From the NCBI GenBank assembly GCA_038253355.1, contig JBBSHF010000003.1, positions 1 to 56,975 on the forward strand: a DNA stretch of 56,975 nucleotides, read 5' to 3'. Shown here piece by piece: positions 80 through 16,052 of this stretch. How positions within the stretch are numbered: the stretch's first letter is position 1; each line of letters begins with the position of its first letter. This DNA comes from Candidatus Limnocylindria bacterium (GTDB lineage Bacteria > Chloroflexota > Limnocylindria > QHBO01). Made by a program: the position numbers and the translations under genes. Below the pieces are notes generated by a model. The model had not been told where the DNA came from. It did no database searches and worked only from the letters and a program-made list of their open reading frames with translations.

Positions 80-126
80 TGGCGTGCCCGAGAGGACTCG
101 AACCTCCGACCTTCAGGTCCGCAACC
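80..126 (-). repeat. att core: duplicated 3' 47 nt of tRNA-Arg
   Basis: TGGCGTGCCCGAGAGGACTCGAACCTCCGACCTTCAGGTCCGCAACC is identical to 11832-11878. Identity stops just past the anticodon loop. Confidence 0.97.
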
Positions 127-163
127 CGGCGCGTGCGTACCTTCGTGTCCCGGAGCGTGCCAT

Positions 164-358
164 CTAGTCCCGTTCTACCCGTGGCGCGGGCTCCGTTGTC
201 CCTTCCCGTCCCGGTGCGTCCCGACCTTCACGGCCGCTGGCGCTCTCGCTGGCGCTCTCGGAGAGCACGGGCGGGTCCGTAGGCATGCAGAAGTGGATAC
301 TCCCATCTTCGTTCCTGAAGGGGTCAACCCAGCCATCAGGCCGCTGTTCGTCGTTCAT
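164..358 (-). CDS. Possible small hypothetical protein
   Basis: ATGA overlap with the integrase stop codon, but its 3' part runs through att-arm repeats, so it may be spurious. Confidence 0.3.
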   Translation of the reverse strand: MNDEQRPDGWVDPFRNEDGSIHFCMPTDPPVLSESASESASGREGRDAPGREGTTEPAPRVERD

Positions 359-1512
359 GCCGACACCACCTTAGTCCCGGCGTCAACCGTCGCTGCCAGC
401 GCGTCAGCAGCCTCCTCCTGCATGCCGGGCAGGACGTGCGCGTAGATGTCCATCGTGACTTGGACCGACGAGTGCCCGAGCCGCTCGCTTACGACCTTCG
501 GGTTGGCGCCGCCGGCCAGCATCAGCGTGGCCGCGGTATGGCGCAGGTCGTGGAGCCGGATGCGCGGCAGGCCGCTCTCGCGGACCAGGCGCTCGAAGGC
601 CCCGCTGACGCCATCGGGATCGAGCGGGCGCCCTGCCGCGTCGGCGAACAGGATGCCCTCCATCGTGATCACAACCTGTCGCGACAGGTGTTCCCGAAGC
701 TCCTGACAGGTGCCGGCGTCGAGCGCCACGCGCCGAGCCTTGCCGTTCTTGGTCGGGCCGATGGCCCAGCCGGCCAGCCCACGTGAGCGCGTGCGCCTGA
801 CGGTCACGAAGCCTGCGTCGAGGTGTAGGTCGTCACGCTGCAACCCTAGCGCTTCCCCGCGGCGCATGCCGCTCAGTGCGAGCAGGCGCCACAGGGCAGC
901 AAGGTCGCTGCCGGCGACGTGATCGAGGAACGCTCGAAGCTGATCGCGGTCCCACACCTTCATCTCGGGCCGCGAGCCTCGGGTGAGCCGGTGGGCGCCG
1001 TCAGCAGGGTTCTTGACGAGCAGATCGTTGCGAACCGCATCCGCCAGGCATCGGTGAAGGGTGAGGTGGAGGTTGTGCCGAGTCTTGACCGCGACCAACA
1101 GGTCGGCGTAGGCGGCCTCGATCTGCGCCAGCGTCAGCCGGCGTAGCTGTACGGCACCGAGGCGCGGAAGCAGGTGGTTGCGCATGGCGCCCTCGTAGCC
1201 GCGCCAGGTGCCGCCTCGAACCTTGCCCTGCACTGCCGGGAGCCACTGCTCCGACCACTGCGCCAGGGTCAAGGTGCTCGGCTCGGGTACGCCTGACTCA
1301 GCTGCGGTCGCAGCCTTACGCATCGCTTCGACCGCCTCGCCTCGGGAGGCCAGCCCGCTGCCGCCCTTCGTCCGGCGCGGTTCGCCGGGGCCGGCAACAT
1401 CGACGCGCCATGCCCACACGATGCGGCGGTCAGAGCCGCAGGTGCAGCGCCGGCCTTTGACGGTGCGGCCGTCGGCCTGGCACCGTTTGTACACGACGCC
1501 TGATCTGCTCAC
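355..1512 (-). CDS. int: Tyrosine integrase with N-terminal arm-binding domain
   Basis: Catalytic set R (GMRRGE), K (PTKNG), HDLRH, LGHS and Y (DIYAH). Adjacent to the att repeat. Confidence 0.97.
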   Translation of the reverse strand: MSRSGVVYKRCQADGRTVKGRRCTCGSDRRIVWAWRVDVAGPGEPRRTKGGSGLASRGEAVEAMRKAATAAESGVPEPSTLTLAQWSEQWLPAVQGKVRGGTWRGYEGAMRNHLLPRLGAVQLRRLTLAQIEAAYADLLVAVKTRHNLHLTLHRCLADAVRNDLLVKNPADGAHRLTRGSRPEMKVWDRDQLRAFLDHVAGSDLAALWRLLALSGMRRGEALGLQRDDLHLDAGFVTVRRTRSRGLAGWAIGPTKNGKARRVALDAGTCQELREHLSRQVVITMEGILFADAAGRPLDPDGVSGAFERLVRESGLPRIRLHDLRHTAATLMLAGGANPKVVSERLGHSSVQVTMDIYAHVLPGMQEEAADALAATVDAGTKVVSA

Positions 1513-2719: not shown

Positions 2720-2989
2720 ATGGCAGGAAGATCAGGAACGAAATCGAGCGCGCTGACGCCCCACGACCTTATCGAGATTGCGTGGGCAGGGCACCTGGCC
2801 GCGTCCGGCGTCGCCCGCGAGCTCCGGGTCAAGAACAAGCTTCTGGTGACCCAGGTCGCGCGCTCCGTGGGGGCGTCTTCGGTATCGAACCTGGTCGCCG
2901 TTGAGCAGGGGCACTGGCCGCTGCCGCGAGTGCCATGGGGGCTGCGCTACGCCGCGTTCCTGCGCGAACTGGTGGGGTTGGATTCATGA
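2720..2989 (+). CDS. XRE/Cro-like HTH regulator (probably leaderless)
   Basis: RELRVKNKLLVTQVARSVGASSVSNLVAVEQG fits the XRE pattern. Extended -10 TGcTACTAT lies 6 nt before the ATG. Confidence 0.7.
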   Translation: MAGRSGTKSSALTPHDLIEIAWAGHLAASGVARELRVKNKLLVTQVARSVGASSVSNLVAVEQGHWPLPRVPWGLRYAAFLRELVGLDS

Positions 2990-3207
2990 GCCCCACTGCC
3001 CGCCGCGAGGTCCTCACCGTGAAGGAAGTCGCCGAGCTTCTCGACCTCAGCCGCAACGGCGTCTACCTGGGCGCCAAGCGCGGCGAGATTCCGAACGTCA
3101 CCGTCGGTCGCCGGGTCCTGTTCCCACGTCGGGCCATCGAGCAGTGGCTGGCGGTTCGGGGGACCGAATCTAAGAGGGTACCCGACGTCGGGAGCCCTCT
3201 TAGATGA
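2986..3207 (+). CDS. xis: Excisionase / HTH_17 DNA-binding protein
   Basis: VLTVKEVAELLDLSRNGVY...GEIP...VGRRVLFPRRAIEQWL is the classic excisionase-family pattern. Confidence 0.88.
   Translation: MSPTARREVLTVKEVAELLDLSRNGVYLGAKRGEIPNVTVGRRVLFPRRAIEQWLAVRGTESKRVPDVGSPLR
3168..3205. repeat. 38-bp near-perfect palindrome
   Basis: ATCTAAGAGGG-ta-CCCGACGTCGGG-ag-CCCTCTTAGAT. Confidence 0.9.
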
Positions 3208-3488: not shown

Positions 3489-3943
3489 TCCACGCCCGCC
3501 GCTTCGAGGACGTCGACCCCGCGATCCTGGTCGCTATGCACGCCGGTGGAGGAGAAGCCGCCGCACCTCCGCTCGGGGGATGGCGCGTTATCCAAGCCCG
3601 GAGTGCCGGCACCTCCATCTTCACGGCGTCCTGCCCGCACTGGATTGCATCCTGGGACGCGCATCCCGCGTCGGATGCTGAGGCTGAGGCCGATCTGGCC
3701 ACGCTGGACGATTGCCCCGTGGTCGAGGTCTGGTTTTGTGTCAGCCCGGCGACCGCTGCACCGAAGGCGCTCGGCCGCGAGTATGCGGAGACCATCAAGC
3801 GGTTCCTGCGCCGCTATGCGCCGTGCCCTTGCGTCCCCGACCTGCGGATGGCGCTCAAAGCGCCGTTCCCAACAGACCGCGCGACCCTTCACCTCGAGCA
3901 CGACCGCGGTTGCCCAGGACTGGCAGCGCGAGCAAGCCGATGA
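3485..3943 (+). CDS. Hypothetical protein (Cys/His-rich C-terminus)
   Basis: SD GGAGG. ATGA overlaps at both ends. CPC...HDRGCP. Confidence 0.6.
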   Translation: MIHARRFEDVDPAILVAMHAGGGEAAAPPLGGWRVIQARSAGTSIFTASCPHWIASWDAHPASDAEAEADLATLDDCPVVEVWFCVSPATAAPKALGREYAETIKRFLRRYAPCPCVPDLRMALKAPFPTDRATLHLEHDRGCPGLAARASR

Positions 3944-4749
3944 ACCCCGTCGAGCAGGCACTAGCCCTAGCCGCTGAAGGCTTCGCCATCGTTGAGGTCT
4001 ACCCACCGACACCCGATGGCGGCTGCACCTGCCGCGAGGGCGCCGGCTGCGGCAGCCCCGGCAAGCATGGCGTCGGGCACTGGTCGAGGGACGCCACACG
4101 CAACCCGCGCCGGGTCCGGCTGCTCGAGTACCGCAGACAAGGTGGCATCCAGTCGAACTACGGTGTCCTGCCGCAGCGCGACTCCCGGCTGCTGATCATC
4201 GACAACGACGTAGCCGAGGTCCGCGGGCAGCTACCGATCCCCGAAACCCTCACGGTCACCCGCCCCAGCGCCCCTGTCGGCAAGGGTCATTGGTATCTGC
4301 GACTCCCCGAATACACCGAGGAGGCCGGTGTGCCACGCGCGTACGCTGGCGGGGAGATACGCATCGCCAGCAGTGGATTCGTGGTAGGCCCCGGCTCGAA
4401 GCACTTCAGCGGGGATTCGCTCGAATCCAACGGGCTGCCCATCGCCCTCGCCACCACTGAACTGGTCGAGGCCCTGCGGTCGCTGCCTCCCCAGCGGGAC
4501 GGGCTGGTGGCCGGCGAAGGTCGCCACTGGACGCTGGTGCAGGAGGCCCGCAAGCAGCGCGGCTGGGGCAAGGACCTCGACGATCTACTGGAGGCGCTGC
4601 TAGAGGTTAACGAGGGGTTCGCCGAACCGAAGGGCGCTGACGAGGTCGCCGCCATCGCCGCCTGGGCGGTCGAGCACGTCGACGTAGATCAGCTGATCTA
4701 CATCACCCGGACCCACCGGCCGTGGGAAGTGGTGGTGCGCCGTGGCTGA
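3940..4749 (+). CDS. Bifunctional DNA primase/polymerase (Prim-Pol with PriCT-like C-terminus)
   Basis: CTC...CGSPGKH, NYGV, LLIIDND (DxD), GKGHWYL, GFVVGPGSKH and C-terminal N..FAEP...EV..IA. Confidence 0.88.
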   Translation: MNPVEQALALAAEGFAIVEVYPPTPDGGCTCREGAGCGSPGKHGVGHWSRDATRNPRRVRLLEYRRQGGIQSNYGVLPQRDSRLLIIDNDVAEVRGQLPIPETLTVTRPSAPVGKGHWYLRLPEYTEEAGVPRAYAGGEIRIASSGFVVGPGSKHFSGDSLESNGLPIALATTELVEALRSLPPQRDGLVAGEGRHWTLVQEARKQRGWGKDLDDLLEALLEVNEGFAEPKGADEVAAIAAWAVEHVDVDQLIYITRTHRPWEVVVRRG

Positions 4750-6079
4750 TCAAGTCATCCTGACGCCCAGCAGCGCGATCCCGATCCGCCCCAACAAGTG
4801 GCTGTTCGATCAGCGGCTGCCGACCGTCGGCCTCGCGCTGCTGGCCGGGCGCGAGGGTGTCGGTAAGAGCAACTACGACTCCTGGCTGGCAGCAAGCGTC
4901 TCCCGCGGAACCTTGCCGGGCGAGTACTTCGGTACGCCGCGAAACGTGATCGTGGTTGCAGCCGAAGACGACTGGGAGACGATCCTGGCGCCCCGGCTGA
5001 TCGCAGCCGGCGCTGACATGGATCGCATCTACCGGCTCACGATCAAGCGCGAGCATGCGACCCACGAGGCCCAGATATCCCTGCCTGAGAACCTCGAAGC
5101 GCTGGAGGCTGCGCTCAAGGAGGTCGACCCGGCGCTGGTTGTGATCTCACCGCTCATGTCGCGGCTGAGCGGCAAGCTCAATAGCCACAACGACAAGGAG
5201 GTGCGCCAGGCGCTGGAGCCGCTGGTGGCGCTGGCCTTCGACTACCGGACCTTGTTCTACGGCTTGATTCACCTCAACAAGAGCATTACCAGCGACCCGC
5301 TCCGCGCGGTGATGGCTTCCGGCGCCTTCGTGGCGGTTGCCCGCGCCGTCGAGTTCATAGCCCGCGACCCGGATGACCCGGATGTTCGGATCGTCGGGCT
5401 GCCGAAGAACAACAACGGGCTGACGGATTACGAGCTCGGCCTGCGCACCTTCACCATCGAGCAGGTCCGCGTCGGCAAGTCGCCGGAAGGCGAGGACGTG
5501 TACGCGACCCGCGCGCGCTTCGGGAAGCCGCGGGATGGCACCATCGAGCAGGTACTGGACGATACAGCCGGCGGCAGCGAGCAGCGGACCGCTATCGGCG
5601 AGGCGCTCGAATGGCTACGTGACTACCTGTACCAGCACGGCGGATCAGCCCCGCGCGAGGAGATTGCCGCTGCCGCCGCAGCGCAGGACATCGGGCTGGA
5701 TGCGCTCAAGCGTGCGCGCGTACGGGGTGGCATCGAGACTAGGCGGACCCAGACGGTGCCGGCCTCCAGCATGTGGCGCCTACCTGGCCCGCAGGTGGTG
5801 CACAGTCGGAGCACCCCTCCTACTACCCCTCCAACTGCTCCAACTGCTCCAACTACACAGAGTAGACAGAGCAGACAGAGCAGACAGGGCGTAGGTAGGA
5901 AGGCTGCTCCGAGTAGGGAGCCACGCGTGTCGGGTCAGCGAGCAGTGCGATGTGCATCTATTCGCACTACGCCTACGCACCGGTCAGGTACCTGTTGCAG
6001 GACTACTCCCCCACATCCCCGCTGTCGTGGTACCTGTCGGGTCCCGTACCCGACGTGCAGCCCTGCAATCCACGCGTGA
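4742..6079 (+). CDS. AAA_25/RepA-like replicative helicase
   Basis: Walker A AGREGVGKS, AAEDD, variant Walker B VVISP and IHLNK. The C-terminal ~100 aa is low-complexity read-through of repeats. Confidence 0.85.
   Translation: MADQVILTPSSAIPIRPNKWLFDQRLPTVGLALLAGREGVGKSNYDSWLAASVSRGTLPGEYFGTPRNVIVVAAEDDWETILAPRLIAAGADMDRIYRLTIKREHATHEAQISLPENLEALEAALKEVDPALVVISPLMSRLSGKLNSHNDKEVRQALEPLVALAFDYRTLFYGLIHLNKSITSDPLRAVMASGAFVAVARAVEFIARDPDDPDVRIVGLPKNNNGLTDYELGLRTFTIEQVRVGKSPEGEDVYATRARFGKPRDGTIEQVLDDTAGGSEQRTAIGEALEWLRDYLYQHGGSAPREEIAAAAAAQDIGLDALKRARVRGGIETRRTQTVPASSMWRLPGPQVVHSRSTPPTTPPTAPTAPTTQSRQSRQSRQGVGRKAAPSREPRVSGQRAVRCASIRTTPTHRSGTCCRTTPPHPRCRGTCRVPYPTCSPAIHA
5829..5890. repeat. Two opposed 9-bp iteron arrays, candidate replication origin
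   Basis: CTCCAACTG x2 plus CTCCAACTA, then ACAGAGTAG, ACAGAGCAG x2 and ACAGGGC. Cores CTGCTC and GAGCAG are reverse complements. Confidence 0.7.
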
Positions 6080-6323
6080 ACGTGCCTGTTAGCCCCTGTC
6101 GCGGGCACGGTGCGAGAGCAGGTGTGAGAGCGCCTGCACGCGTGAACGGCGCCACACAGCGCCTGTGGTGGGCCGCCGGCCCCGGTATCTCGTGTGGACG
6201 GCGCACCTCCCAGGCCCGGTACGCTGAAACCGCCGGCCTCCTTGCGGGCCAATCGCGCCGAAACGCCGGCCCGCATGCCTTCGTAATCCGACCGTGGATG
6301 GTCCGTGGCGGGAGGCCCCGCTG

Positions 6324-6845
6324 ATGGCTGCCGTGTGCCGTACCTGCACCTCTCCGGACCGCCCGGCGATCGAGGCAGCTCTTGTCTCAGGTCAGAGCAT
6401 CCGTGGCGTCGCGCTGCGCTATGGCCTGAGCAAGGGTTCGGTGTCGGCCCACTTCAAGCACCACGTCAGCCCAGCGCTGGCCGGCATCGTGGAAACCAAG
6501 CGCACGCGGACCCTGATCGACCGCGCCGAGCAGCTGATCGGGGAAACCGAGTCGATCCTCCAGGCAGCCAAGGAGAGCGGCCGGGCTCAGCTGGCGCTGA
6601 GCGCGATCCGCGAATTGCGGGAGAGCATCAAGCTGCTCGGCCTGGCATCCGGCGAGCTTCGCCCCGAAGGGCAGGTTCAGATCGCCGTCGTGAATCTGGT
6701 TGAGAACCAGGAGTACCTGCAGGTGAAGGAGCGCCTGCTCCTAGCGCTGGCAGCCTTCCCCGAAGCCCGCGCCGCAGCGGCCACCGCGCTGCTGGCGGAA
6801 CCTACCGTGACGGTAAGTTCCCGGCAGGCGAACCTCAGGTCGTGA
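6324..6845 (+). CDS. Putative terminase small subunit (CxxC...HxxxH zinc/HTH protein)
   Basis: SD GGAGG. CRTC, then HTH (SIRGVALRYGLSKGSV), then HFKHH, then a helical region. Directly upstream of the terminase ATPase. Confidence 0.65.
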   Translation: MAAVCRTCTSPDRPAIEAALVSGQSIRGVALRYGLSKGSVSAHFKHHVSPALAGIVETKRTRTLIDRAEQLIGETESILQAAKESGRAQLALSAIRELRESIKLLGLASGELRPEGQVQIAVVNLVENQEYLQVKERLLLALAAFPEARAAAATALLAEPTVTVSSRQANLRS

Positions 6846-6852
6846 GGGTTTC

Positions 6853-7710
6853 ATGAGCAAACTTTCCGCCGATCTCGCCCGCTCTCTCGATCCCGCTGCC
6901 CTGTTCGCGGTCACCGGCAAGACGCCGGATGCCTGGCAGATCCGCGCGGTCAGATCGACGGCCCCGAAGCTGCTGCTCAACGTGACCCGCCAGGGAGGCA
7001 AAGGAGAGGTCGCCAGCGTGATAGCTGTGGACCGCGCCATCAACGATCCCGGCTCGTTGATCCTGCTCGTGAGTGCCGGCATGCGCCAGAGCCAAGAGTT
7101 GGCGATGCGAACCCGCGCGCTGGCCCGCAGCCTTCAGCTGACAGCCAGCAAGGACAACGCGCTCGAGCTGGGGCTTGAGAACGGCAGCCGCATCGTCTCC
7201 CTTCCGTCGAGTGAGGGCACCATCCGCGGCTTCGCGGCGGTCAGCCTGTTGGTCATCGATGAAGCTGCCCGTGTCGAGGACGAGGTGTACGCCGCCGTGC
7301 GCCCCATGCTCGCTGTCTCGGAGCGTGGCCGCATCGTCGCTATGTCGACGCCGTTCGGCCGGCGCGGCTGGTTCTGGGAAGCGTGGGACGCGGGCGGCTC
7401 CAGCTGGGAGCGCTACCAGGTGCCGGCCACCGACATCCCGCGCATCAGCCCGGCCTTCCTGGCCGAGGAGCGTGCCGCGCTGGGCCGCTTCTGGTACGAG
7501 CAGGAGTACCTGTGTGGCTTCGTCGACGCGGCCGGCTCCCTGTTCCGGGGCGACGACATTGATGCAGCCTTCGCGGCCGGCCGAGGCATCCCTCCGCTGT
7601 TCGACGAGTTCCCGGCGATGCGCCCACAGCAGGACGCACCCGACCTGTTCCCTAAACCCAACCTGCAAGAGTTCGAGGAGGCCGACAGACGCCTTCGGGA
7701 GAAGCTATGA
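6853..7710 (+). CDS. Terminase large subunit, ATPase half
   Basis: PDAWQ motif, Walker A RQGGKG, Walker B LLVIDEAA, coupling motif MSTP and QEYLCGF. Confidence 0.88.
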   Translation: MSKLSADLARSLDPAALFAVTGKTPDAWQIRAVRSTAPKLLLNVTRQGGKGEVASVIAVDRAINDPGSLILLVSAGMRQSQELAMRTRALARSLQLTASKDNALELGLENGSRIVSLPSSEGTIRGFAAVSLLVIDEAARVEDEVYAAVRPMLAVSERGRIVAMSTPFGRRGWFWEAWDAGGSSWERYQVPATDIPRISPAFLAEERAALGRFWYEQEYLCGFVDAAGSLFRGDDIDAAFAAGRGIPPLFDEFPAMRPQQDAPDLFPKPNLQEFEEADRRLREKL

Positions 7711-8351
7711 CCAGCCTGAACCTGGCGCTCGATCCGGGAAAAGTGGCTGACCCGGCAGCCCTCGTTATCGTTGAGCGGCTCACGGTAGCCGGCGGCCCGG
7801 ACCGTTACGTGATCCGCCATGCCGAGCAGTGGGACCTCGGAACGCCGCACACGGTGGTCGCCTCGGACGCGGTGAGGCTCAAGCAGTCGACCGGCGGCGA
7901 CCTGTTCTACGACGCCACGGGGATCGGCGAGGTCTACCACGAGCTGTTCCGAATGGCTCACCGGTCAGGCGATCTGAACTACCACGCGTACCCCGTCCTG
8001 ATCACCGGCGGCTCGACGTACAGCGACGAGGGCGTCTCGAAGGAGTACCTCGTCCGGAAGTTCGAGGCGAAACTCTCCACCGGGCTGATCGTGGTCGCTG
8101 AGACCTGCCGGCTGAAGGACGTGCTGCGGCATCAGCTGGAGCGCTTCAGCTACCAGATCAACCGGCGCGGCAATGCCACCTACGAGGCGATGCGCGAGAA
8201 GGATCACGACGACCTGCTCACCGCTGTGATGCTCGCCACCCTCTACCGGCGCTCGGCGCCGTCAGGACCCAGGTATGTCGCTCCGAATGGGAAGACATAT
8301 GAGTCACTCGCCGAAGCCGTCGTATGGCTCGGCCAAGGAGCCCACGCATGA
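7707..8351 (+). CDS. Terminase large subunit, RNase H-like nuclease half
   Basis: LALDPG..AD, YDATGIG and HDDLLTAVMLA acidic motifs typical of TerL nuclease domains. Has its own SD (GGAGA) and an ATGA overlap. Confidence 0.82.
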   Translation: MTSLNLALDPGKVADPAALVIVERLTVAGGPDRYVIRHAEQWDLGTPHTVVASDAVRLKQSTGGDLFYDATGIGEVYHELFRMAHRSGDLNYHAYPVLITGGSTYSDEGVSKEYLVRKFEAKLSTGLIVVAETCRLKDVLRHQLERFSYQINRRGNATYEAMREKDHDDLLTAVMLATLYRRSAPSGPRYVAPNGKTYESLAEAVVWLGQGAHA

Positions 8352-9346
8352 GCTACCAGACCAACATCAACCGCGTCCCTGGGCCGTCACGGTCGGCGGA
8401 ACCGCTCAGGCGGCCGATGGACGCCTACTCGCAGGCCATGCTCGAACGCACCTGGCAGCAGGTCCACGTCGACGATGCCCGCGCCTGGCTCGCTGTGGCC
8501 AAGGCGGGCGGCGACAGTGAGGAGATCAAGAGCCGCACGGAGAACCTTCGACGGCTCACCGAAACCCTGGCGCGTGCAACGACGCGCCTCAAGCAAACGG
8601 AGGCCACCATGGCACTCACAGACACTTACGCCGAGATCACCTCGGCTTGGAAACAAAAGGTCGGCGACGCTCTCGGCAAGATCGCTGAGATCGAAGGCGA
8701 CGAGAAACTCCCGGCGGCATACCGGGTATCTGAGAAGGATCGACGGCTGCGCGAAGTGCGGGCCGCTGATCAGCTGATCTCCTCAGCGATGGGCAACTGG
8801 CAGCAGGCGGCGGCGCAGGAAGCCGACAAGTGGCGGGCGAGCGCTGATGCCGGTGTCGACGCCACCACCCGGCTGGCGAACCAGATGGAGCACACCGCGC
8901 TGGTCGCCGACCGGCGGGATGGCTCCTACTTCCTCGGCGAGGCGCGCAAGCTGCTCAGCCTGGGCCAGCCGCAGCGGGCAGCGCTCCTGTTCGGTGTCGC
9001 GCAGGCGAAAGGCACCGCGGACCTGATGATCGGTCAGACCGGCGCAGCTATTGAGGCGGCGCTGGATGAGGCGATCCCGGATCGCGCCAAGGCATCCGCC
9101 GTCGAGCGCCTGGCAGTGGACAAGACCAGCGAGTTCAAGATTGGCCGCATGAAGGCGCTGTCTGTCGCTGGCGGCATCGGTCCGTCTGGTGAGGTCGGGC
9201 ACGGCACGCAGAGCGAGCGCTCAACCGCGGGCATCGCAGCCACCATGGGTGACTACTTCGAGGCCGAGCGTAAGGGCGAGAAGTACTCCGAGGAGTTCAA
9301 CCACCGGGAGGACGGTCGGATCGTTCCAGATGAAACAAAGCCGTGA
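8348..9346 (+). CDS. Hypothetical helical protein (332 aa) with in-frame internal start at 8609
   Basis: SD AAGGAG and ATGA coupling to the nuclease gene. A second SD-ATG (GGAGGccaccATG) lies in frame. Confidence 0.75.
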   Translation: MSYQTNINRVPGPSRSAEPLRRPMDAYSQAMLERTWQQVHVDDARAWLAVAKAGGDSEEIKSRTENLRRLTETLARATTRLKQTEATMALTDTYAEITSAWKQKVGDALGKIAEIEGDEKLPAAYRVSEKDRRLREVRAADQLISSAMGNWQQAAAQEADKWRASADAGVDATTRLANQMEHTALVADRRDGSYFLGEARKLLSLGQPQRAALLFGVAQAKGTADLMIGQTGAAIEAALDEAIPDRAKASAVERLAVDKTSEFKIGRMKALSVAGGIGPSGEVGHGTQSERSTAGIAATMGDYFEAERKGEKYSEEFNHREDGRIVPDETKP

Positions 9347-9819: not shown

Positions 9820-9966
9820 TTAGGTGCCCTCGGGCTCCTCCACCTCGTCCGCTTCGGTCGGTTCGCCGCTTCCGAACAACAGCGACGCCTGGACGCCGGG
9901 CGTGGCGGTCGCCCTGACGGCCCTTCGGTGGGTGACGTTCGCTCCCGAGACGTGCGGGTAGTGCAT
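9820..9966 (-). pseudogene. 48-codon ORF resembling an orphan C-terminal tail of an MTase-endonuclease
   Basis: MHYPHVSGANVTHRRAVRA...QASLLF. TGATG overlap with the MTase stop codon. Confidence 0.4.
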
Positions 9967-11624
9967 CAGTTTGAGTCGAACAGCTCACCCTGCTCGGCCG
10001 CCTTCTTGATGGGCTGCGCTTGCTGGTAAGGGGAGAGGATGAGCAGCGGCAAATTCGGCTTCCGGCCCTCTTCGAGCAGTTCGCGGATGGTGATAATCTG
10101 GACAGCCGGATAGTCTCGGCCCGACAGGTCGGAGTGGTAGAAGCCTGCCTCTGTCGCCTCTAGACGCATGGGAGCTGTTGGCTCCTCCAGCGTGACGAAC
10201 AGGCCCATCGCCGCGCCCTGTGCGCCCATGTCGCCCTTGAGTTCGGCAACCTGGGCTCGTCCAACGTGGCCAGACTTCACGCTCACGATGCAGCTTTCGA
10301 GCTTGCCCCCTGCCCCGGTGAAGGTGATGACGCCGTCCACGCCTTTGTCTGCGCCCTTCTTCTGGGTGCCGCCAACCGGCATCGCGCCCACGAGCGTCAG
10401 CGCCCAAAGCTCGAACTGCTCACGTCCATTCGGGAGCTGTTGTGACAGCTTGCGGGCTCCCTCCACCTCGGTCGGCGAGCCCTCGATCGGCACCTCGATC
10501 CCAAAGCTGTCGCGGAGCCGCGCTTGCATGACCGCGATGGCGAGGTAGGTCACGTCGATTCCGATCCATTGCCGTCCGAGCTTCTGGGCGGCAACGATGG
10601 CGGTGCCACAGCCGCAGAAGGGATCGAGGACGATGTCGCCGGGCTTTGACGAAGCGGCGATGATGCGTTCGAGCAGCGCGAGCGGCTTCTGCGTCGGGTA
10701 CCCCAGTCCCTCACTGGACCAAGAGACAACCGGTTGGACGCCCTTGTCGGCCCATAGGTCCTGAAGTGGCGTTCCTTCCATCTCGTCCAAGTACCGCTTG
10801 ATTCTCGGAAAGCCGTTCGGGGTGAAGTAGATTCGGCCGTCCGCGACGAACTGGTCTAGCTTCTCCTGTGTGAACCGCCAGTGCGAACCAGGAGGCGGCT
10901 CGCGAAGCACGCCCTTGAACAGGCGCGCCGGTCCCGGCCCGGCAGCGGCCACGTCCCCGGATGCGTAGCGTCGGCCGTTCGGCTCCTTGTAGCGATAGTA
11001 CTTGGCGACGTAATCCTCGTCATAGGGCTGGTAGACCTTGTTCCAGACATGTTCCTCCGACTTGGCATAGAACAGGAGCACGTCGTGGATGCGCCCCGCC
11101 CGCTTGCTGTCGCTGTGCGCAGTGGTCCGCTTCCAGATGACCTCATTCCGGAAGTTCTCCGGCCCGAAGATGGCGTCGAGGACCAGCCTCAGATAGTGCG
11201 ACGCGGTCGGGTCACAGTGAAGCCACAGCGTGCCGGTCGGCTTGAGGACCCGGTGTAGCTCGACGAGTCGGACCGCCATCTCAACGACATAGGCCAGCAT
11301 CGGGCTCAGCCTGATCCCCTTGTGGAAGGCGCCGACCAAATCGCTCACGGTGCTCGGCACCCGGCCACCGTGGTACCCGCTGTTGGTCAGGTACAGGTAT
11401 TGCGCCTCCGCATCCGGTCCCCAGTGCCACGTGTCATCGAAGGCGGTGATTTGCGCATCGCTCCGCCGGCCGGATTCGTCGCGGAAGATGACGTTGTAGG
11501 CCGCGTTAGAGTTGAACGGCGGGTCGAGGTAGATAAGGTCTACCGACTCAGGCGGGATGTAGGGCGGATCATGACGCAGGATGTCGAGGTTGTCCCCGTA
11601 GTAGAGGACGTTGGTCGCGGTCAC
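9966..11624 (-). CDS. Beta-class N6/N4 DNA methyltransferase fused to Mrr-like PD-(D/E)xK domain
   Basis: LYYGDNL, DPPF (motif IV), YPTQKP and VLDPFCGCGT (motif I). C-terminal FE...GADKGVDG...SVKSG. GTG start 6 nt after -10 TATGCT. Confidence 0.92.
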   Translation of the reverse strand: MTATNVLYYGDNLDILRHDPPYIPPESVDLIYLDPPFNSNAAYNVIFRDESGRRSDAQITAFDDTWHWGPDAEAQYLYLTNSGYHGGRVPSTVSDLVGAFHKGIRLSPMLAYVVEMAVRLVELHRVLKPTGTLWLHCDPTASHYLRLVLDAIFGPENFRNEVIWKRTTAHSDSKRAGRIHDVLLFYAKSEEHVWNKVYQPYDEDYVAKYYRYKEPNGRRYASGDVAAAGPGPARLFKGVLREPPPGSHWRFTQEKLDQFVADGRIYFTPNGFPRIKRYLDEMEGTPLQDLWADKGVQPVVSWSSEGLGYPTQKPLALLERIIAASSKPGDIVLDPFCGCGTAIVAAQKLGRQWIGIDVTYLAIAVMQARLRDSFGIEVPIEGSPTEVEGARKLSQQLPNGREQFELWALTLVGAMPVGGTQKKGADKGVDGVITFTGAGGKLESCIVSVKSGHVGRAQVAELKGDMGAQGAAMGLFVTLEEPTAPMRLEATEAGFYHSDLSGRDYPAVQIITIRELLEEGRKPNLPLLILSPYQQAQPIKKAAEQGELFDSN

Positions 11625-11831
11625 CGGGAGAGCATAAGGGCCGCGGCGCCAGCCGGCCACGTCGCACCAGTGGTGCCGCACCTGCCGATGTCAACGACCG
11701 CGGCCCTCTCAGCACCCTAACGGTCAACGCTTACCGGGGGCTTACTGGGGCTCATGCTCTCAGAGCGCTCTCGCAGCCGCCCTGCCAGGAACGACGAAGG
11801 CGCCCCAGAGGGCACATTCTCGCGTGAATTG

Positions 11832-11907
11832 TGGCGTGCCCGAGAGGACTCGAACCTCCGACCTTCAGGTCCGCAACCTGACGCTCTATCCACTGAGCTA
11901 CGGGCAC
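11832..11907 (-). tRNA. tRNA-Arg(GCG)
   Basis: 76-nt cloverleaf with acceptor GTGCCCG/CGGGCAC-G-CCA and anticodon arm TCAGG-TTGCGGA-CCTGA. Confidence 0.96.
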
Positions 11908-13642: not shown

Positions 13643-14842
13643 ATGGTCCGCCGTATCGCCTTTTTCGCGCTCGTGACAATCGTGGTCTCCGCATGCTCGG
13701 CGAGCGTGTCGCCATCGGGCAGCGCGATGCCAAGCGCGACCCCCCCTAGCTCGAGCGCGAACGCCTCGCCGGCCGCCACCGCGTCCGTCAGCGGGGCATC
13801 GGCCGCACCGTTGCCATCGGCCGCACCGACGCAAGCTCCCGGCGGGGTGTACGCCGCCACCGTCAACGGCCAGCTGGCACCGGCCATCGCCGATCTGAGC
13901 CCTCGGGTCTACGTCCCCGACGAAGCCTCCGGCGATGTGGTCGTCATCGATCCGGCAACATTCAAGATTATCGGGCGCTTCAAGGTTGGCATCAGCCCCG
14001 AGCACATCACCCCCGACTGGGACCTGAGCCGGCTGTATGTCAACAACATGTCGAGCTCGAGCCTGACCATCATCGGCCCACGCACGTCAAAGCCGACCGG
14101 CACGATCGCGGTGCCCTACCCGTACAACCTGTACTTCACCATGGACGGTAGCAAGGCAATCGTCGTCGATGACTTCCTGGGCAGGGACTTTGTCCACCAG
14201 AACGGCCTGTACTTCTACAACCGCAAGACCTGGAAGCTCATCAAGTTCGTCGAGATTCCGTTCACGGGTGTCGATCACCTCGATTTCTCGGCCGATGGCA
14301 GCTACCTGATCATGAGTTGCGAGAGCTCAGGCGACGTGGTGAAGGTCGACCTCACGAAGCTGGAGCTCAGCGGAGTCGTGCGGGTGGGCGGCTCGCCGCT
14401 CGACGTTCGCCTCGACCCCGGCGGAAAGGTCTTCTACGTCGCCAACCAGGGGACCAACGGGGTCTCGGTCATCAACGGCGACACGATGAAGCAGGTCGGC
14501 TTCATCAAGACCGGGAAGGGTGCCCACGGGATTGGCATGAGCCGCGATGCCACGCGGCTCTTCGTGACGAATCGTCTTGGCGGGACGATCTCGGTGATCG
14601 ACCTCGCCACGCGCAAGGTCGTCGACACGTGGCAGGTCGGCGGATCCCCTGACATGATGGCCAGCTCGATCGACGGCTCACAGCTGTGGGTCTCGAACCG
14701 ATACAACGGCTCGGTCATCGTGATCGATGCGGCCACCGGCAAGATTCTCAGCACCATTCGCACCGGGCTCAACCCCCACGGCCTCTCGTTCTGGCCGCAG
14801 CCAGGCCGTTTCAGCCTGGGCCACAACGGCAACATGCGCTGA
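13643..14842 (+). CDS. YncE/YVTN beta-propeller lipoprotein
   Basis: Lipobox VSAC, Ser/Pro/Ala linker, repeated LYVxN...SVID...VGxxP blades. Confidence 0.88.
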   Translation: MVRRIAFFALVTIVVSACSASVSPSGSAMPSATPPSSSANASPAATASVSGASAAPLPSAAPTQAPGGVYAATVNGQLAPAIADLSPRVYVPDEASGDVVVIDPATFKIIGRFKVGISPEHITPDWDLSRLYVNNMSSSSLTIIGPRTSKPTGTIAVPYPYNLYFTMDGSKAIVVDDFLGRDFVHQNGLYFYNRKTWKLIKFVEIPFTGVDHLDFSADGSYLIMSCESSGDVVKVDLTKLELSGVVRVGGSPLDVRLDPGGKVFYVANQGTNGVSVINGDTMKQVGFIKTGKGAHGIGMSRDATRLFVTNRLGGTISVIDLATRKVVDTWQVGGSPDMMASSIDGSQLWVSNRYNGSVIVIDAATGKILSTIRTGLNPHGLSFWPQPGRFSLGHNGNMR

Positions 14843-14843
14843 G

Positions 14844-16052
14844 GTGACCGTTCGCCGCGGGCTGGTGGTGGCTGCGCTGACAGCATTGATGTCGGCGTGC
14901 TCGGCGAGCGGGTCACCGTCGAGCAGCCCGAGGCCCACCGCCACTCCCCCGGGTCCGAGCGCGAGCGCCTCTCCGACCCCGGTGGCGTCCGCCAGCACGG
15001 CCGCGACAGCACCGTCGTCATCGGTCAAACCTGCGGCATCGGCCGACGACGGGGTGTACGCAGCCACCGTCAGCGGTCGGCTGGCACCCGGCGTCGCCGA
15101 CCTGAGCCCTCGGGTCTACGTCCCCAACGAGCACTCGGGCGACGTGGTCGTCATCGATCCGGCGACATTCAAGATCATCGGGCGCTTCAAGGTTGGCACC
15201 TTCCCCGAGCACATCACTCCCGATTGGGATCTGACCCGGCTGTATGTCAACAACATGTCCAGCTCGACCATCACGGTTATCGACCAGCGCACGTCGAAGC
15301 CGACCGGCGAGATTCTGCACGCTCCCACGCCGTACGACCTGTACTACACGCCCGATGGCAGCAAGGCCATCGTGGTCAACGACTACATCTCGCCCACGCT
15401 CATCAGGTACAACGGCCTGAACTTCTACGACCGCAAGACGTGGAAGTTCCTGAAGTTCCTGGAGATCCCATGGCCGGGGGCCGATGACCTCGACCTCTCC
15501 GCGGACGGCAGCTATCTCATGGTCAGCTGCGAGTACAGCGGCATAGTCGCCCGCGTCGACACGCGCAAGATGGTCGTCACGGGATCGGTGCGGGTCGGCA
15601 GCCTGCCGCGCGACGTGCGCCTGGGACCCGATGGCAAGCTCTTCTTCGTCACCAACGAGGGTCGCGCGGGCGTATCGGTCATCGATCCGGTCCGTATGCG
15701 GGAGATCGCCTTCATCAAGTCCGGCGCCGGCGCACACGGGATCGAGTTCAGCCGTGACCTCACCAGGATGTACGTCAACAATCGGTCAGCCGGAACGATC
15801 TCAGTGGTCGACCTCGCGACACGAAAGGTCGTCACGACATGGCAGGAGGGTGGCTCGCCGGACGAGCTGAATCTCTCCATCGACGGCACCCAGGCGTGGA
15901 TCGCCGACCGATACCACGGCGGCGTGACCGTCATTGATACCCGCACCGGAGCGATCCTCGCCAAGATTGCAACGGGCGGATATCCGCACGGGATCCTGTA
16001 CTGGCCCCAGCCTGGACTGCACAGCATCGGCCAGAACGCCAACATGCGCTGA
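14844..16052 (+). CDS. YncE/YVTN beta-propeller lipoprotein (tandem paralog)
   Basis: Lipobox MSAC. Same architecture as 13643-14842, with near-identical stretches. Confidence 0.88.
   Translation: MTVRRGLVVAALTALMSACSASGSPSSSPRPTATPPGPSASASPTPVASASTAATAPSSSVKPAASADDGVYAATVSGRLAPGVADLSPRVYVPNEHSGDVVVIDPATFKIIGRFKVGTFPEHITPDWDLTRLYVNNMSSSTITVIDQRTSKPTGEILHAPTPYDLYYTPDGSKAIVVNDYISPTLIRYNGLNFYDRKTWKFLKFLEIPWPGADDLDLSADGSYLMVSCEYSGIVARVDTRKMVVTGSVRVGSLPRDVRLGPDGKLFFVTNEGRAGVSVIDPVRMREIAFIKSGAGAHGIEFSRDLTRMYVNNRSAGTISVVDLATRKVVTTWQEGGSPDELNLSIDGTQAWIADRYHGGVTVIDTRTGAILAKIATGGYPHGILYWPQPGLHSIGQNANMR

Follow-up and report, generated by a model that had tools for sequence, protein, structure and literature searches.

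The window (the whole stretch of DNA analysed, 56,975 nucleotides) harbors an integrated island of 11,752 bp, delimited by two tRNA-Arg repeats. The left attachment repeat (80..132) duplicates the 3' end of tRNA-Arg, with 47 bp matching exactly and 53 bp at 96%, and the right one (11832-11884) lies within the tRNA-Arg(GCG) gene (11832..11907, minus strand), which represents the integration site. Between them we found a tyrosine integrase (355..1512, minus strand; PF00589, PF14659, phrog_1), an HTH_17 excisionase/regulator (2935..3207, plus; PF12728, phrog_66), a bifunctional primase-polymerase whose start is probably located further in (3712..4749, plus; PF09250), an AAA_25 helicase-like replication ATPase (4742..6079, plus; PF13481, phrog_10729), a likely small terminase (TerS) with a putative HTH and helical architecture (6294..6845, plus; start at 6294 or 6324), a terminase ATPase subunit of 285 aa (6853..7710, plus), a terminase nuclease subunit of 214 aa (7707..8351, plus), an all-helical protein (8348..9346, plus) and, as cargo, a fusion of an N6/N4 DNA methyltransferase with an Mrr-like nuclease domain (9966..11681, minus; PF01555, PF04471, PF22722). 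Searches with Pfam and PHROG profiles did not recognise any portal, capsid, or tail gene in the island, and neither a promoter nor a convincing pac/cos repeat was detected in it. Judging from this gene content, the island is complete, with att sites, an integrase, and a primase-helicase, and with no recognisable portal or capsid. Genomes of the same genus are similar to the window only from about the tRNA-Arg outward, and none of the five carries the ATPase gene; distant ATPase matches were retrieved from four of 60 relatives, three of them fused.

Tailed phages normally produce the large terminase (TerL) as one protein; in the island, the two domains that a large terminase joins in one chain are encoded by two ORFs. 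The first of these matches Pfam Terminase_6N (E 3e-6) and phrog_7579 (E 4e-54; the profile has 239 positions), and the profile of its homologs matches the ATPase domain of Thermus P74-26 (PDB 4zni; E 1.5e-16). The protein retains Q29, R46, K50, R125, the Walker B pair D136-E137, and S165-T166-P167, read as the coupling motif; D136-E137, S165-T166-P167, and R125 are conserved across 43 ATPase homologs. According to the 4zni match and to the available part of PMC5389665, R125 likely corresponds to P74-26 R139, and it is likely to be the arginine finger. Residues 226-266 form a putative linker/docking tail: 69 residues follow the QEY motif, about 34 more than the median in 201 relatives (35), in agreement with the additional tail of about 40 aa proposed in the preliminary description.

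The same description credited the 285-aa ATPase with all of its motifs, which holds for Q29, Walker B, the STP motif, and R125, but not for Walker A, where the Ser/Thr is replaced by Gly. The motif reads RQGGKGE, with Gly51 in the position of Ser/Thr (K50-G51-E52, window positions 7000-7008), and thus departs from the GK[S/T] form by which large terminases are recognised. Among the best 120 of 4615 ATPase homologs, 117 have Ser/Thr at this position and three (P0001-P0003) have Gly; the latter constitute a sub-clade about 74% identical, and the P0002 cluster includes the protein of the locus L162. Over 245 locus ATPases, the residue is Ser in 231, Thr in four, Gly in three (L162 and two distant fused proteins), and Pro in one, with six unscored. 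The weight of the Walker A Ser/Thr is a matter of general P-loop knowledge; we found no paper in the open literature on its importance in terminases. The loss of this residue throughout the sub-clade makes the ATPase activity of the GKG copy uncertain.

The second ORF, of the RNase H/RuvC type, matches phrog_27743 (E 1.5e-19) and, weakly, Terminase_6C (E 0.0015, under the cut-off); the profile of its homologs matches the G20c/P74-26 nuclease domain (E 3e-6). The 12 non-self homologs retrieved are all 214-254 aa long (search range 117-375 aa), and tblastn did not retrieve any nuclease relative among cultured phages. In the alignment of 13 nuclease homologs, D9, D15, H167, D168, and D169 do not vary and D69 hardly does, which bears out the earlier reading of a 214-aa RNase H-like nuclease with its acidic motifs. 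Their spacing equals that of D294/D300/D347/H427-D428-D429 in G20c, as given in the accessible portion of PMC5389553, and the three catalytic Asp expected of an RNase H/RuvC nuclease are present as D9, D69, and D169. The Thermus P74-26/G20c TerL (PDB 4zni, 5m1f) is a structural neighbour of the pair.

The nearest cultured relatives are the Thermus phage Riverbug (PQ109080) and the Meiothermus phage MMP17 (MH939157), whose TerL proteins are 50% and 47% identical, respectively, to the ATPase; the nuclease is homologous to that of Riverbug TerL, with an identity of 26%. In these phages TerL is a single chain of 415-417 aa encoded along with portal and head genes, whereas the island has two genes, no portal, and the GKG motif. 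Like the island, both phages harbor a TerS-like gene directly upstream of TerL, the product of which is 37% (Riverbug) and 34% (MMP17) identical to the protein encoded at 6294..6845. The TerS-like family occurs upstream of the ATPase in 101 out of 162 loci, its place there being taken alternately by PHROG-named TerS families, and its C-terminal segment is shared with the phrog_4044 TerS family (HHalign prob 96). No TerS profile matched the protein directly, fold searches retrieved nothing at E<=0.001, and its single-sequence model is poor (pLDDT 61). Position and partial homology point to a likely small terminase. We rejected the idea that only split motors have the C-terminal segment, since it is found also in Riverbug, MMP17, L235, and L237, whose TerL is fused. 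As a side observation, an unannotated ORF upstream of the Riverbug TerL (L248:2526-3008, Riverbug_33) is a homolog of the TerS-like gene, while the record assigns the name TerS to a downstream gene.

The ATPase and nuclease ORFs overlap by ATGA, and GGGAGAAG, a purine-rich ribosome-binding motif, lies 3 nt 5' of the nuclease ATG, as the preliminary description had reported. All 119 best non-self ATPase homologs (from the best 120 of 4615, with 156-499 aa allowed) are 245-337 aa long; among proteins of 500-2000 aa, 19 pass E 1e-30, the best of them scoring 231 bits versus 264 for the 120th short match. We fetched 241 loci, consisting of the best 80 of 339 from GTDB, the best 80 of 305 from IMG/VR, the best 80 of 133 from metagenomes, and one distant IMG/VR locus that came from a single-protein scan of viral contigs. 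In these best-matching loci the ATPase is split with an adjacent nuclease in 214, fused in 14, and either cut or with the nuclease undetected in 13, a ratio of split to fused that is biased because the search profiles came from split members. The split point falls in the same linker in all 214, which answers the proposed check of whether homologs share it, and 79 of the 80 GTDB loci (best 80 of 339) are split.

These data bear on the possibility that the two ORFs derive from an assembly error or a recent frameshift in a one-chain terL. A single indel at 7656-7707 would formally join the frames, and the read support consists of contigs from the run that is probably the source of the assembly. 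However, the closest relative, L162 (74% identical), has an identical ATGA junction, the top homologs (best 120 of 4615) are all split, and a contig assembled from run X1 (positions 7627-7957, with a depth near 10) spans the junction with zero gaps or mismatches; the proposed check for an indel near 7580-7710 found none in the contigs aligned there. X1 is probably the source sample, and for this reason its contig is not an independent support; among the assembled contigs of runs X2 and X3, no long piece matched the element. The scenario in which the closest homologs are fused and one indel restores a single ORF did not hold: the closest relatives are unfused, even if any ATGA overlap can be fused by one indel. 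We regard an error as extremely improbable, the split homologs having already refuted it. In the comparison with L162, the dN/dS of the ATPase was about 0.27 and that of the nuclease 0.49, both rough, with dS near 0.9; on these values, both genes are under purifying selection. At low depth, run X1 also yields contigs that share about 90% identity with the two genes (7476-7656 and 7716-8033); their changes are synonymous at 13 of the 15 codons in the ATPase and at 10 of the 11 in the nuclease (29 of 40 rows considered). This identity, together with almost exclusively synonymous changes, indicates that a second, related element is present in the X1 sample.

A different possibility is that a programmed -1 frameshift joins the ORFs during translation, in which case the working enzyme would be one chain. 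The nuclease frame is open for 17 codons ahead of its ATG, and over the 129 junctions scored, in which overlaps of 4 and 13 nt predominate, the nuclease is at -1 in 98; still, it is at +1 in 23 and in the same frame in eight, i.e., in other frames at 31 junctions, some loci have gaps of 100-370 nt, and an ATGA-type coupling by itself yields an excess of -1. Furthermore, a slippery heptamer occurs at only five of the 129 junctions and is absent from the one described here, and some loci have nuclease paralogs upstream of the ATPase. The spread of frames and the rarity of the heptamer argue for translational coupling rather than a shared frameshift, and we consider a translational fusion very unlikely. 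The closest homologs being split, the variable junction frames, the purifying selection, and the co-folding of the halves (see below) speak for an evolved two-subunit enzyme, as first proposed: on the sequence comparisons and the structural models, the two-gene split is real and evolved, and not an error. A quick tree, from which rows more than 68% identical, L001, L246, and the 13 undetermined loci were left out, is compatible with five changes between the split and fused states, in either direction; its deep support is weak and its outgroup non-monophyletic.

In the one-chain Riverbug TerL, the ATPase match extends up to residue 227, with the first Asp of the nuclease following at 255. The corresponding Asp occupies position 9 in the second protein of the island, and therefore the linker of about 30 residues stays on the ATPase, the cut falling just ahead of the strand that opens the RNase H fold. 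The co-fold of the ATPase and the nuclease, suggested as a check along with TerS, predicted binding, with an ipSAE of 0.85 (three runs) versus 0.01 for the best control, at least 86% of the contacts common between runs, and a partner pLDDT of at least 75; the mark used was attained by 116 out of 157 solved pairs and by two out of 215 mismatched pairs. This result supports binding rather than demonstrating it, since the halves of a split gene may pass through their likeness to solved one-chain terminases. The predicted interface brings nuclease residues 116-155 together with ATPase residues 226-266, 207-214, and a few more, and the model predicts that the docking of these two regions replaces the covalent link.

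A two-gene TerL has already been published for the cluster AY Arthrobacter phages (BillyTP, PP978841; PMC11920828). As in the island, the ATPase and the nuclease are encoded there by consecutive overlapping genes behind TerS; the AY phage is plaque-forming, its nuclease is of the PF20441 type, and portal and capsid come next. HHalign gave a prob of 0.5 for both halves, with no detectable similarity to the pair described here, and the AY split is probably an independent fission. In the open literature (subscription journals and supplements being outside its scope), we found no account of the split family or of TerL-bearing portal-less satellites. The matches to "split TerL" concern intron-split genes, in the available part of PMC12880540, or Twort, in that of PMC13729910, and the portions accessible of PMC6669507, PMC6536676, bioRxiv 2025.02.15.638363, and PMC13601566 contain nothing on split terminases in satellites. 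PHROGs keeps the two halves as separate profiles.

The distribution of the family revealed two lifestyles, one capsid-less and one virion-forming, to judge from the genes around the split motor. On the one hand, six local profiles did not retrieve any portal or capsid from the 80 GTDB loci (best 80 of 339), which carry 14 named phylum labels and include nine loci from methanogenic archaea; likewise, among 77 ORFs located downstream and 270 aa or longer (56 loci; plus strand, first three per locus), there was neither a portal nor a capsid, and three gave tape-measure matches. At L057:11838-16190, L070:12441-15215, and L072:2390-4447, a tape-measure-like gene follows shortly behind the nuclease and a portal was not detected, L070 being a 14.6-kb tRNA-Lys island. 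Repeat pairs anchored in a tRNA gene and 6.1-14.6 kb apart flank the module in 17 of the 72 loci that are 15 kb or longer. On the other hand, the split pair is near a portal gene in 25 of the 80 IMG/VR loci (best 80 of 305), many with scaffold and major capsid, the usual order being TerS, ATPase, nuclease, SPP1-type portal, scaffold, and capsid; 20 of these 25 form one clade and are not independent, and the others sit apart on the tree. Each of five portal-bearing records searched whole (40-82% complete) contains one TerL match, the two-gene motor itself, and a tape-measure search of the portal-bearing records gave a single weak match. These portal-linked pairs are the best argument for DNA packaging by a two-chain TerL. 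One IMG/VR locus, L103 (15,218 nt), has direct terminal repeats and carries an integrase, a primase, a TerS-like gene, and the split pair; it is possibly the excised circle of such an element. In 12 loci (L030, L033, L034, L041, L047, L053, L056, L058, L063, L076, L118, and L129), each ATPase is accompanied by two to four nuclease paralogs, some of them upstream of it, and Mom and ParB genes are often present.

The module is also located on small plasmids. A primase and a split pair of the same family, with no annotated capsid, are carried by pSR11 and pSR14 of Salinibacter ruber and by a Streptomyces virginiae plasmid of 16 kb, and pSR14 also has a TerS-like gene; unlike the island, these are extrachromosomal circles, and the Salinibacter ones have ParA where the island has an integrase. 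The part of PMC6060240 available mentions just a "terminase" on small plasmids.

In size and content, the island resembles PICIs/SaPIs, being an island of about 10 kb with an integrase and att sites, HTH regulators, a primase-replicase (PF09250 and PF13481), and a TerS-like gene, without tail or lysis genes. As regards the regulator typical of PICIs (an AlpA, MerR, or Stl homolog), the island gave only HTH_17 and weak HTH_31 matches, and no match was obtained for the facultative capsid-morphogenesis gene. The main difference is that PICIs redirect the helper's TerL, TerL being specific to cf-PICIs according to the accessible text of PMC10085698, whereas the island carries its own. With cf-PICIs it shares a satellite-like size and the possession of TerL; the capsid, the portal, and the head-tail connector/adaptor that the same text attributes to them were not found here.

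According to these data, we consider it fairly probable that the two overlapping TerL genes belong to a complete, capsid-less integrated element, the proteins of which, predicted to reassemble, would package the element DNA into helper procapsids. Against this reading stand the host genome, in which portal/capsid profiles detected no helper phage (see below), and the GKG motif of the ATPase. Beyond the gene content, every step of this mechanism is one that we infer. The island would excise and replicate by its own primase-helicase; the TerS-like protein would select or mark the element DNA; the ATPase ring would grip it; the nuclease, held by the ATPase tail, would cut it; and the ring would pump it through the portal of the helper, filling the procapsid. 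The all-helical protein encoded just downstream, whose ORF is ATGA-coupled to the nuclease (with a second strong start at 8610), is a candidate adaptor or capsid-size factor. It has 72 non-self homologs, and its family follows the nuclease in five related loci (L162, L165, L002, L003, and L245); it gave no PHROG, Pfam, or convincing PDB match, and its single-sequence fold is poor (pLDDT 53).

Alternatively, the terminase might be used without virions, for the cutting of concatemers or other DNA movement, or the elements might be short-lived, trimmed prophage remnants. The presence of the module on small ParA plasmids would be compatible with this, as would the host genome (97% complete), in which three Pfam families and six local profiles found no portal or capsid elsewhere and portal/capsid profiles found no helper phage; moreover, head-gene loss is a possible history because portal-bearing phages carry the same pair. 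Against it stand the intact att repeats on both sides of the island, the 17 of 72 long loci with a tRNA-anchored repeat pair just 6-14.6 kb apart, the lack of portal remnants in the downstream ORFs and under the six local profiles, and the purifying selection; we judge this reading unlikely.

It is likewise unlikely, in our opinion, that interference with phages is the main role of the module, with the ATPase poisoning the helper motor or portal and/or the nuclease cutting helper DNA while the helper terminase packages the element. The GKG Walker A of this sub-clade and the two to four nuclease paralogs per ATPase in some loci could be explained in this way, and the isolated nuclease domains of the T4, Sf6, CMV, and HSV terminases do cleave DNA (PMC5389665, in the part available). 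Yet Ser is kept in 231 of the 245 locus ATPases and Thr in four, the two-gene motor is the sole TerL match in the portal-bearing records mentioned above, the structural prediction places the nuclease on its own ATPase, and a PADLOC search gave no match. The earlier suggestion that a free nuclease could attack helper-phage DNA thus finds no support, also in view of the isolated nuclease of P74-26, the nearest solved relative, which neither binds nor cuts DNA according to the same portion of PMC5389665.

If the helper-packaging reading is correct, fission would make the nuclease a detachable, duplicable subunit, and DNA pumping would be possible without a covalently attached nuclease domain. Two models of the one-chain enzyme differ in this respect: in that of T4, a covalently hinged nuclease domain drives translocation (PMC3074133, available part), and in that of P74-26, the nuclease is the flexibly tethered passenger of a DNA-gripping ATPase ring (PMC5389665, available part). 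A two-chain TerL fits the hinge-mediated communication of the former less easily. A natural two-chain TerL that is 50% identical to one-chain phage enzymes would also allow the separate reconstitution of pumping and cutting. More tentatively, and with a chance that we place a little below even, these loci may represent a widespread, undescribed class of satellites from bacteria and methanogenic archaea, integrated or on plasmids, which have their own TerS and a two-piece TerL, lack portal and capsid, and dock their motor on foreign procapsids. Their strategy would be intermediate between that of PICIs (TerS only) and that of cf-PICIs (full head), and cultured carriers, such as those of Salinibacter pSR11 and pSR14, are open to testing. 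As for annotation, stand-alone "terminase" genes of about 250 aa from the split family should not be labelled as pseudogenes.

Lastly, outside the element, two tandem paralogous lipoprotein-like ORFs of about 400 and 440 aa, with repeated beta-rich motifs, are located at 13643-16052.
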